Origin: Chromatiales bacterium
GTDB lineage: Bacteria > Pseudomonadota > Gammaproteobacteria > Poriferisulfidales > Oxydemutatoraceae
NCBI GenBank assembly: GCA_014323925.1
Contig: JACONC010000003.1
Coordinates: 73 to 64,072, forward strand
Length of the DNA stretch: 64,000 nucleotides
Direction: 5' to 3'
The notes beneath the pieces were generated by a model. It saw only the letters and a list, made by a program, of their open reading frames with translations, was not told where the DNA came from and ran no database searches. The position numbers and the translations under genes were made by a program. This document shows positions 25,049 through 33,662 of the stretch, one piece after another. Every line of letters starts with the position of its first letter. The stretch's first letter is position 1.

Positions 25049-26329
25049 ATGTCTACAAAACAACCTCACGATACACCTATGTTGGACGAACTAGAAAAAG
25101 GTCCTTGGCCTAGTTTTATTTCCGGCATTAAGCGTTTAAGAGATCAACACGAAGACGATCGCGTCAACAGTGTTGCAAATGACCTGCTGGGTCAACTTGA
25201 ACATTCCTACGAGACTCGCAAGGGTTACTGGAAAGGCGGCACGGTCAGTGTTTTCGGTTACGGTAGCGGTATTATTCCACGCTTCTCCGAAGTCGGTGCG
25301 GCTTTCCCGGCATCAAAGGAGTTTCATACTCTGCGAGTGCAGCCGCCGTCTGGGAATTACTACACGACTGATATGCTGCGCAAGCTCGCCGATAGCTGGG
25401 AGAAATGGGGTTCTGGTTTGGTTACTTTTCACGGTCAGACCGGCAACATTATGTTCATAGGAGCGACTACTGAGAACACGCAACACTTTTTTGACGATAT
25501 AAACGAATACGGTTGGGACTTAGGGGGTGCTGGCCCTTGTGTGCGCACTGGCCAATCGTGCGTTGGTGCGGCTCGTTGTGAGCAATCCAACATTGATGAG
25601 ATGCGTATACACCGCACCCTACTGAACAATTTCACCGACGATGTGCATCGTCCGTCGTTGCCTTATAAGTTTAAGTTTAAAGTTTCGGGTTGTCCTAACG
25701 ATTGTATGAACTCTATAGAGCGCGCTGATTTTGCAATTATCGGAACTTGGCGAGATGATATGAAAGTCAACCAACAAGAAGTTAAAGCTTATGTTGCTAA
25801 GAAGGGTCGCCAATACATTATTGACAATGTAATTTCGCGATGCCCAACGAAGGCATTGTCGTTAAAAGATGACGACACCTTAGATGTGGATAACCGCAAC
25901 TGTGTGCGCTGTATGCATTGCTTGAATGTTATGCCGAAGGCACTGTCTCCGGGTGATGACACGGGCATCTCAATTTTGATCGGCGGCAAGCGCACGCTGA
26001 AAATCGGCGATTTGATGGGTACCGTGATCGTTCCTTTTATGAAACTGCAAAGCGACGAGGATTATGAACGTCTAGTGGAATTGGCTGAGGAGACTATAGA
26101 TTTCTGGGCTGAGAACGGTCTTGAACACGAGCGTTGCGGTGAGATGATAGAGCGCATCGGCTTAATCAATTTTCTCGATGGTATTGGTGTCAGTGTAGAC
26201 CCCAATATGGTTAGCGACCCGCGTACGAGTTCCTATATCCGCATGGATGAGTGGGAGCAGGAAGCTAGGAAGTGGTTTGAAGCTAAAGCGAAAAACAACA
26301 CCGAGCAAAAACAAGCAGCCACCGCTTGA
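25049..26329 (+). CDS. dsrA: Dissimilatory sulfite reductase alpha subunit (oxidative/rDsr type by operon context)
   Basis: 426 aa. N-terminus MSTKQPHDTPMLDELEKGPWPSFISGIKRL…, siroheme/[4Fe-4S] Cys clusters (CxxxxxC…CPNDC) and a ferredoxin-like insert. Strong RBS aaggaggt 8 nt upstream. Confidence 0.95.
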   Translation: MSTKQPHDTPMLDELEKGPWPSFISGIKRLRDQHEDDRVNSVANDLLGQLEHSYETRKGYWKGGTVSVFGYGSGIIPRFSEVGAAFPASKEFHTLRVQPPSGNYYTTDMLRKLADSWEKWGSGLVTFHGQTGNIMFIGATTENTQHFFDDINEYGWDLGGAGPCVRTGQSCVGAARCEQSNIDEMRIHRTLLNNFTDDVHRPSLPYKFKFKVSGCPNDCMNSIERADFAIIGTWRDDMKVNQQEVKAYVAKKGRQYIIDNVISRCPTKALSLKDDDTLDVDNRNCVRCMHCLNVMPKALSPGDDTGISILIGGKRTLKIGDLMGTVIVPFMKLQSDEDYERLVELAEETIDFWAENGLEHERCGEMIERIGLINFLDGIGVSVDPNMVSDPRTSSYIRMDEWEQEARKWFEAKAKNNTEQKQAATA

Positions 26330-26357
26330 ACGGTGAAATAGAGCAAGGAGTAGAAAA

Positions 26358-27431
26358 ATGGCACAAGAACATCGTTCACCGATTGAATCGGGTTGTCCCG
26401 ACGGTTTTCAATATATGCATCCGGTGATGCGTAAGAACTATGGCAACTGGGCATACCACGACGATCCACGCCCTGGCGTGTTAAAACATGTATCGCACGA
26501 TGGCGATGCGATTTGGACGGTAAGAGCCGGCACCCAACGTATTTTAGATGTGTTTACGTTACGCAAGCTGTGTGATCTTGGTGATCAATACGCCGATGGC
26601 TATGTGCGTTTCACGATACGCAGCAACATAGAATATATGTTGGACGACGAAGCTAAAGTGGAACCGCTGATCAATGCTATTGAAGATGCTGGTTTCGTGG
26701 TCGGTGGCACTAAAAACTCAGTTACAATGATCTCACATACACAAGGATGGTTGCATTGTGATATTCCGGGCACTGACGCCTCTGGGGTTGTGAAAGCGAT
26801 GATGGACGAATTGATAGAAGAGTTTAAGAACTGGAATATGCCGAACCGTGTGCATATCACCACATCGTGTTGCCAGATTAATTGCGGTGGTCAAGGTGAT
26901 ATTGCCATCAATGTGCAACATACCAAGCCACCTAAGATCAATCACGATTTGGTCTCTAATGTATGCGAGCGGCCGTCGGTGGTTGCCCGTTGTCCGGTGG
27001 CGGCCATACGCCCAGCGATGGTCAACGGCAAGCCATCGCTAGAGGTTGATGAGAAAAAGTGTATTTGTTGTGGTGCTTGTTATCCGCCGTGTCCGCCGAT
27101 GCAGATTAACGACCCTGAGCATACCAAGCTGGCTATATGGGTCGGCGGCAATCATTCCAATGCGCGTAGTAAGCCTTCTTTCCAAAAATTGGTCGCTGCA
27201 GGTATTCCGAATAATCCACCGCGTTGGCCAGAAGCAACGGCAGTGGTGAAAAAGATTTTGAAAACCTATAAACAAGATGCTAAAGACTGGGAGCGAATTA
27301 GCGACTGGATTGAACGTATTGGTTGGCCTCGTTTCTTTGAATTAACCGAACTGCCGTTTACTAAATTTCACATTGATAATTGGTTGGGAGCCCGTCGTAG
27401 CTTAAATGCTTCAACGCATATTCGCTTCTAG
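26358..27431 (+). CDS. dsrB: Dissimilatory sulfite reductase beta subunit
   Basis: 357 aa; paralog of DsrA with Cys clusters (…CCQINCGG…, CICCGACYPPCP). Confidence 0.95.
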   Translation: MAQEHRSPIESGCPDGFQYMHPVMRKNYGNWAYHDDPRPGVLKHVSHDGDAIWTVRAGTQRILDVFTLRKLCDLGDQYADGYVRFTIRSNIEYMLDDEAKVEPLINAIEDAGFVVGGTKNSVTMISHTQGWLHCDIPGTDASGVVKAMMDELIEEFKNWNMPNRVHITTSCCQINCGGQGDIAINVQHTKPPKINHDLVSNVCERPSVVARCPVAAIRPAMVNGKPSLEVDEKKCICCGACYPPCPPMQINDPEHTKLAIWVGGNHSNARSKPSFQKLVAAGIPNNPPRWPEATAVVKKILKTYKQDAKDWERISDWIERIGWPRFFELTELPFTKFHIDNWLGARRSLNASTHIRF

Positions 27432-27451
27432 TTTCTTAGTTATCAGGCACT

Positions 27452-33279: not shown

Positions 33280-33359
33280 TACTAAGCAAGGATAAACTCA
33301 CTATTGAGGTGAAGTTTATATTATGAGTAGTGCCTGGGACGGCCTAGAGAATTCACTAA

Positions 33360-33638
33360 CTCGAACCCAACTTCCGCATTACGCTTAATATAGATGTTCC
33401 CGAAGATACATTTTATAGTGATCGCAAAATTGCTGAAAAATGTGTTAAGAGCTTCTTAAAGGTATGCCGCAGGCATAAAATTAAATTGTCCGACTATACA
33501 TTTATAGAGCCTTCCGCTGGTGAGGGTTGTTTCTATGACTTTTTACCGCAAAATAAAATCGGACTGGATATTGCACCGCAAAGCAAGCAAATTAAGAAAG
33601 CGGATTTTTTAACTTGGCAAGCGTTTAGCGTACAGTAA
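33360..33638 (+). pseudogene. N-terminal fragment of a gamma-class N6-adenine DNA methyltransferase (truncated at the IS-end repeat)
   Basis: The open frame has no start codon. Translation ...DVPEDTFYSDRKIAEKCVKSFLKVCRRHKIKLSDYTFIEPSAGEGCFYDFLPQNKIGLDIAPQSKQIKKADFLTW has the layout of M.TaqI/Eco57I-type N6A methyltransferase N-termini (…VLEPACGxGxFL…GxEIDP…ADFLxW). It then runs into the repeat and stops; there is no catalytic NPPY region. Confidence 0.5.
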
Positions 33639-33662
33639 ATAAGTCGAATCTAAATATACCTG
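33616..33662 (-). repeat. IS110-like terminal repeat copy (core only)
   Basis: ggcaagcgtttagcgtacagtaaataagtcgaatctaaatatacctg is ~85% identical to 18654-18700. Abuts the methyltransferase fragment and lies 167 bp upstream of paralog 2. Confidence 0.5.

Follow-up and report, generated by a model that had tools for sequence, protein, structure and literature searches.

When a dsr gene cluster of the sulfur-oxidizing kind ends at dsrL, are dsrJ, dsrO and dsrP missing from the organism, or do they lie elsewhere in its genome? This question is raised by a stretch of 64,000 nucleotides (nt), hereafter called the window, from contig JACONC010000003.1 of a Chromatiales metagenome-assembled genome (MAG; GenBank GCA_014323925.1). 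In the window, nine genes of the dissimilatory sulfite reductase (Dsr) system run in one direction in the order dsrABEFHCMKL and are followed by a putative methyltransferase gene fragment, a short piece related to an insertion sequence (IS) and three tandem paralogous genes. We found that the full DsrMKJOP is encoded in the MAG, with dsrMK in the window and dsrJOP on a second contig that is linked to it by binning. So we conclude, with high confidence, that a complete oxidative Dsr system is split over two loci in this small-genome, AT-rich gammaproteobacterial sponge symbiont; locus 1 would be dsrABEFHCMKL in the window, and locus 2 would be dsrJ-dsrO-dsrP-agcS on a separate 15-kb contig.

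The dsr genes in the window and on a second contig

The nine genes were assigned from the list of open reading frames (ORFs) by profile search against Pfam and NCBIfam; they occupy positions 25049-33279 with gaps of no more than 43 nt (Table 1). DsrA and DsrB share 79-84% identity with those of Thiohalocapsa halophila. DsrE, DsrF and DsrH form a sulfur-relay heterohexamer. The translation of dsrC ends in ...QACKYAGLPKPTGCV, which is a CysB-X10-CysA tail, and the arm with the two cysteines reads ...CKYAGLPKPTGCV. For DsrM the best NCBIfam match was NF038037 (E = 2.5e-48), under the cut-off of that model, and the position of the gene is orthologous in all relatives. Because DsrEFH and DsrL are present, the cluster is, judged by its gene content, of the oxidative (reverse Dsr, rDsr) type. 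The first-pass annotation, made from the sequence alone, had described an rDsr-type cluster that ends at dsrL, and the profile assignments of the nine genes agree with it. Compared with the dsrABEFHCMKLJOPNRS operon of Allochromatium vinosum, the window has the same set and order from dsrA to dsrL, including the two-cysteine DsrC, DsrEFH and DsrL, and the MAG also encodes DsrJ (trihaem), DsrO (iron-sulfur, FeS) and DsrP (NrfD-like). The MAG differs from the A. vinosum type in that dsrJOP is not contiguous with dsrL and that agcS, not dsrN, dsrR or dsrS, comes after dsrP.

Queries with DsrJ, DsrO, DsrP, DsrN, DsrR and DsrS of Thiohalocapsa gave zero tblastn matches in the 64-kb window, the MAG's own DsrJ, DsrO and DsrP gave zero matches there as well, and no window ORF had more than one CXXCH motif. 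Systems with DsrMK only are found in Gram-positive sulfate reducers, and the window alone, with dsrMK and without dsrJOP, has the same content. The organism could then be truly devoid of dsrJOP and run reverse Dsr on a DsrMK-only module, as those sulfate reducers do in the reductive direction, and a metagenome scan with a DsrP alignment, which returned no contig of JGI 3300012945 among the 600 matches listed, seemed to fit this. But that scan gave a false negative, since JGI 3300012945 does hold a dsrJOP contig. In the MAG, dsrJ is MBC6414698.1 (GDA45_07465), dsrO is MBC6414699.1 and dsrP is MBC6414700.1, all on a contig of 14,973 bp. The window proteins, by exact look-up, are MBC6413705 to MBC6413721 on a contig of 130,119 bp, where the first of the three paralogs (par1) is GDA45_02135; the locus-tag prefix GDA45 is the same on both contigs, and thus they belong to the same MAG. 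Intact dsrJOP was also present in every sister genome examined. The MAG has dsrJOP elsewhere and therefore does not represent a DsrMK-only organism, a reading that we consider very improbable. The first-pass annotation had left the choice between a split operon with dsrJOP elsewhere and a DsrMK-only system, and it is the split operon that is found.

The second contig came up with the DsrP of L005, the nearest relative having one, as protein query, with the best 120 matches listed. This search gave a tight clade of NrfD proteins of 397-411 amino acids (aa), one of which lies on the closed chromosome of the relative L004. Another clade member (P0041) lies on Ga0164229_100565 of JGI 3300012945, the same metagenome whose contig Ga0164229_100109 holds the window dsrL, and its cluster mate (P0121) is MBC6414700.1, which is also on a Logan contig of SRR10406140, the run with the window dsrL. 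An ENA assembly holds the dsrJOP contig too, as 14,119 bp. The guanine-plus-cytosine (GC) content of the dsrJOP contig is 43.6% and that of the window 43.1%, and the tetranucleotide correlation between the two is 0.947, compared with a range of 0.937-0.959 inside the window. Judged by their sequences, the dsrJOP genes of the MAG seem intact: three CXXCH motifs occur in DsrJ, DsrO scored 314 bits with NF045797 (cut-off 200) and carries RREFMRK, which resembles a twin-arginine translocation motif, and DsrP is full length and has 84% identity to the DsrP of the sister genomes, in line with the 88% of DsrL. The Na+/alanine symporter gene agcS follows dsrP, and no dsrN, dsrR or dsrS adjoins it; the closest closed genome has a homolog of the DsrN family about 400 kb from the dsr genes. 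On the dsrJOP contig we also saw a 691-aa N6 DNA methylase gene (4337-6412 of this contig, L165) between agcS and lipA, weakly similar to the MADS methyltransferase MAD2 and absent at the same position in the sister genomes L172 and L173.

Several points weigh against the split-operon reading. The link between the contigs is binning only (MAG, samples and composition), and no read or contig joins both. The dsrJOP contig has a similar size in all four assemblies (10.8-15.0 kb), and the JGI and Logan versions end about 350-400 nt upstream of dsrJ, which hints at an unresolved repeat there. DsrJ and DsrP fall below the NCBIfam equivalog cut-offs, though the DsrMKJOP models were their best matches, and the 395 nt upstream of dsrJ showed no promoter consensus; promoter and terminator scans at the end of dsrL and upstream of dsrJ were uninformative.

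These points leave room for misbinning: the dsrJOP contig could come from another, related strain or species that occurs alongside, and the organism of the window could itself have lost dsrJOP. Linkage by binning alone would allow it, and composition can't separate close relatives, as the tetranucleotide signatures of sister species are almost alike (r = 0.94-0.95). Against it, only one clade protein with a JGI source (P0041) was among the best 120 DsrP matches, and it comes from the sample that holds the window dsrL contig. The exact DsrL look-up likewise returned a single contig from the JGI sample, a divergent second dsrL not having been searched for. The divergence of DsrP from the sisters (84%) parallels that of DsrL (88%). 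The MAG is probably SP5GCR1, a Chromatiales symbiont of the sponge Lamellodysidea herbacea, which is given as 1.62 Mb, 44.7% GC and 28 contigs with 98.3% completeness and 0% contamination (PMC7313196); if the MAG is SP5GCR1, these values also speak against misbinning. We therefore regard misbinning as unlikely, and we keep the assignment of both loci to one organism.

The junction after dsrL

Is the end of the operon in the window real? The exact DsrL of the window (MBC6413719.1 in NCBI) was found on ENA, JGI and Logan contigs, which agreed with the window at every position (100% identity) along 13-22 kb across the junction, including 33200-33900. The join of dsrL to a methyltransferase gene was also present in a closed sister genome of 2.96 Mb (L170), with 82% DNA identity up to 33617. 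The junction is thus not a misassembly, because three other assemblies agree on it and the closed sister genome has the same join. One point weighs against this evidence: all three of these assemblies were probably built from only one or two read sets, of the same sponge sample, and so represent independent assemblers and not independent biology. The first-pass annotation had asked whether a corrected assembly would bring dsrJOP next to dsrL; in that case a repeat would have caused a chimeric join at 33.2-33.9 kb. Such a join would find its repeat in the IS end that lies exactly at the junction and has two more copies in the window, but this repeat is just 47 nt, below typical read length, the three assemblies from different pipelines are identical, and the junction is kept in the closed long-read sister genome. 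These results exclude the misassembly for practical purposes, and we give it the lowest probability of all the alternatives considered here.

The sequence directly after dsrL is the start of a decayed gene. In L170 the gene is intact and encodes a 317-aa protein, to whose residues 1-100 positions 33323-33620 align at 82-86% protein identity. In the window the ATG is retained (33323), the loss of 2 bp near 33387 shifts the frame and makes a stop, and the gene is cut after about codon 100, ahead of motif IV, with the homology to L170 ending at 33617-33620. Motif I (FIEPSAGEGCF) is in the stub, and the intact L170 ortholog has in addition GLDVAPQ and the motif IV NPPF. On the motifs of its translation, motif I plus NPPF in the 317-aa protein is an amino-methyltransferase signature; of eight plasmid homologs of the intact protein, two carry the annotation S-adenosylmethionine-dependent methyltransferase, and neither the stub nor the intact protein had a match in Pfam or PDB sequences. 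The putative methyltransferase fragment that the first-pass annotation placed 80 bp after dsrL is a real stub, but the distance has to be corrected, as its ATG is 44 nt past the dsrL stop.

Two other sources of the stub were considered and rejected. It has no protein or DNA homology to the EcoRI-type methylase after dsrL in L004, the closest relative of the window, so the cargo differs between lineages. Nor does it show homology to the 691-aa N6 methylase that neighbours agcS on the dsrJOP contig; a match there would have pointed to a simple reciprocal break.

The 47-nt repeat begins exactly where the homology to L170 stops. Its copies in the window have a common outer boundary, and the flanks diverge beyond it. 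In L004, an intact IS110 transposase gene (PF01548 + PF02371; 7570-8544) has a 5' non-coding flank whose outer end matches the repeat in alignment, and this alignment supports the IS110-like terminal repeat proposed earlier. For the copy at 18.3 kb, tblastn gave 51% identity to residues 1-51 of the L004 transposase (E = 4.5e-12), and 18277-18700 has 72% DNA identity to L004 8593-8820. No transposase gene with PF01548 and PF02371 was found at 33.6 kb, and the window has just the 51-codon N-terminal remnant at the 18.3-kb copy. Because no transposase is there, the feature at 33618-33664 is, from its sequence, a scar and not an IS element; it is probably an IS110 end, or else may be a preferred target sequence of IS110. 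An Rfam scan of the window gave only a tRNA; the IS ends matched none of the described RNA families. On the dsrJOP contig, an IS110-end copy upstream of dsrJ was not established, as just 12 nt matched exactly and the alignment was weak.

The third copy (46482-46555) is 127 nt from a tRNA gene (46683-46756), and the 12.8-kb housekeeping segment between the 33618 and 46482 copies is bounded by inverted IS ends, which could mark an inversion. A simple inversion through the 46.5-kb copy was tried as an origin of the junction and rejected, as tblastn did not find the 3' part of the methyltransferase gene in the window.

Table 1 Positions of the dsr genes and of the features around the junction in the window
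Feature	Position	Strand	Basis
dsrA, reverse-type dissimilatory sulfite reductase alpha	25049..26329	+	TIGR02064 624.5 bits (cut-off 392.85); Pfam NIR_SIR, NIR_SIR_ferr
dsrB, sulfite reductase beta	26358..27431	+	TIGR02066 542.8 bits (cut-off 341.5)
dsrE	27452..27844	+	TIGR03012 above cut-off; Pfam DsrE
dsrF	27841/27853..28275	+	TIGR03010 above cut-off; Pfam DsrE
dsrH	28285..28596	+	TIGR03011 above cut-off; Pfam DsrH
dsrC, two-cysteine C-terminal arm	28620..28952	+	PF04358, 158 bits; translation
dsrM, membrane dihaem cytochrome b, NarI family	28996..29739	+	NF038037, PF02665
dsrK, cytoplasmic FeS/CCG protein	29747..31282	+	NF045796 607 bits (cut-off 400)
dsrL, NAD(P)H-binding FeS flavoprotein, last dsr gene of the locus	31309..33279	+	NF009410 704 bits
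Putative amino-methyltransferase pseudogene (317-aa parent)	33323..33620	+	tblastn/alignment to intact ortholog L170:12018-12971
Putative IS110-family outer-end remnant, 47 nt	33618..33664	+	Repeat family with 18629-18700 and 46482-46555; aligns to L004 IS110 flank
Decayed IS110, left end and first 51 transposase (DEDD) codons	18277..18700	-	tblastn, L004 DNA identity
Third IS110-end copy, inverted relative to the other two	46482..46555	-	Repeat comparison
Three tandem paralogous ORFs, 367/367/356 aa	33829..37145	+	Direct repeats, 91-92% DNA identity

The dsrL-dsrJ spacer in relatives

To see the usual order, we collected 80 GTDB species with a related DsrL, of which 74 loci reach far enough past dsrL to be judged. 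In 73 of these 74 informative relatives the gene directly after dsrL is dsrJ, and dsrO, dsrP and usually dsrN come next. The lone exception is L004 (GC 43%; DsrL 88% identical to that of the window), the closed chromosome OZ244052.1 of 2,220,706 bp, labelled 'Ca. Porisulfidus sp.'.

The junction was then surveyed in eight genomes of the window's AT-rich sponge-symbiont subclade, including the window MAG. In L166 (Logan), dsrL and dsrJ are contiguous with a 143-nt spacer. L172 has a 3.4-kb insert with an N6_Mtase fused to Methylase_S, and L173 has a 5.6-kb insert with an N6_N4 methylase, P63C and an IS1595 fragment. In L004/L164, dsrJ-dsrO-dsrP-agcS is about 29 kb downstream of dsrL on the same chromosome, and a defence island with the EcoRI-type methylase, GmrSD/HNH, SIR2, Vsr and Dcm starts directly after dsrL; the reading covered the first ~10 kb and last ~9 kb of these 29 kb. 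In L170/L169, the 2.96-Mb genome, two methylases follow dsrL, and dsrJOP is about 150 kb away on the opposite strand. L174 and L175 have transposases, and not dsrL, in the 8.6 kb upstream of dsrJ, and in the window MAG dsrL and dsrJ are on separate contigs. Altogether the eight genomes comprise one with an intact spacer, three with inserts (3.4, 5.6 and 29 kb) and four, including the window, in which the genes are non-adjacent (more than 8 kb to ~150 kb).

The other side of the break is more uniform. The agcS gene was downstream of dsrP in every genome examined, and after agcS the window MAG, L172 and L173 have lipA, lipB, pilin-like genes, bioB and bioF; L174 keeps lipA-lipB, and L164, L169 and L175 differ. 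By gene order, the dsrJOP side appears to keep its ancestral neighbourhood in several genomes. In L004 we also observed a soxXYZA-soxB cluster and an IS110 copy (743-6586) between dsrK and dsrL, and therefore the dsr operon of L004 is broken at two places; no sox homologs were found in the window.

The following history would account for the window. The ancestral order would have been dsrABEFHCMKLJOP-agcS, and mobile DNA with DNA methyltransferases and defence genes would have entered the short dsrL-dsrJ spacer. Later, in the lineage of the window, an IS110 element may have struck the inserted methyltransferase gene, and deletion or rearrangement at the IS would have left the frameshifted stub of about 100 codons and 47 nt of IS end, joined to unrelated DNA, the paralog array. 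We infer this order of events, insertion and then IS-mediated deletion or rearrangement, as the most economical one. The earlier wording that dsrJOP had been replaced by a methyltransferase stub and an IS end holds insofar as dsrJOP is not next to dsrL, but dsrJOP was not deleted; it would have been separated from dsrL by inserted mobile DNA and then by rearrangement.

In our judgement there is an even chance that the ~140-nt dsrL-dsrJ spacer is a clade-wide integration hotspot for methyltransferase and defence cargo, and recurrent landing of mobile DNA at this junction looks like the mildly novel aspect of the locus. The pattern resembles known defence and restriction-modification hotspots in that the cargo at one conserved junction, methyltransferase or defence genes, varies from genome to genome within a clade (L004, L172, L173, L170). 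It differs from them in that the junction is inside an energy-metabolism operon and not beside a tRNA or core-gene boundary, and no integrase or attachment site was identified. If the spacer is a hotspot, the DsrMK and DsrJOP halves would have been repeatedly uncoupled in transcription with neither half lost, which means that dsrJOP (with agcS) would have a promoter of its own or readily gain one and that the two modules would not need to be transcribed together.

Neighbouring genes and meaning of the split

Upstream of the dsr locus are housekeeping genes: a tauD-like gene, two Band-7 genes, hisZ and purA. The paralog array immediately past the IS110 scar is context outside the dsr system. 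Its ORFs had no Pfam or NCBIfam match, and tblastn against the 22-kb dsrL loci of L004-L008, L010 and L052 gave none at E <= 1e-8. Size differences of the array between assemblies come from the start choices of gene callers, as the DNA is 100% identical. Downstream past the three paralogs are genes for TPR/Cds6, YkuD, an M14 peptidase and NDH-2, followed by rplM, rpsI, rplU, obg and proB. A type III secretion system (T3SS) block occupies 2637-11208 on the minus strand (HpaP, YscO, an EscN-type ATPase, a SpoIIE/HAMP/HATPase regulator, a CesT chaperone and SctL). The annotated part, before 8824, shows synteny with sister genomes, in which the block is about 7 kb or less from dsrJOP (L164) or directly upstream of it (L169). 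At the left edge of the window there is a TPR protein gene (25-504, minus strand) with four tandem 102-nt (34-aa) repeats at 28-435; ENA scaffold_96 ends near the same position, which suggests an assembly-breaking repeat.

By analogy with A. vinosum, DsrM and DsrK of locus 1 and DsrJ, DsrO and DsrP of locus 2 are presumed to form the usual DsrMKJOP membrane complex, which would connect DsrC-bound sulfur oxidation to the quinone pool; on this analogy nothing suggests a novel electron route. Transcription of dsrJOP would be separate.

SP5GCR1 has been discussed as methylotrophic, as having a T3SS and as a potential pathogen of the sponge (PMC7313196), and wording on dsr, sulfur oxidation, sulfite, sulfide or thiosulfate is absent from the main text of that paper. 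The two loci suggest that a Chromatiales symbiont of Lamellodysidea sponges carries a complete sulfur-oxidation module. The case serves mainly as a warning: here, a single contig of a fragmented symbiont MAG would have led to an erroneous "DsrMK-only" or "incomplete Dsr" call, and automated pathway calling that needs a contiguous dsr operon would under-call the clade. The split is an ordinary outcome of mobile elements eroding operon structure in a host-associated bacterium, and the recurrent disruption between dsrL and dsrJ makes a small, testable case of how mobile DNA erodes operons in host-restricted bacteria.

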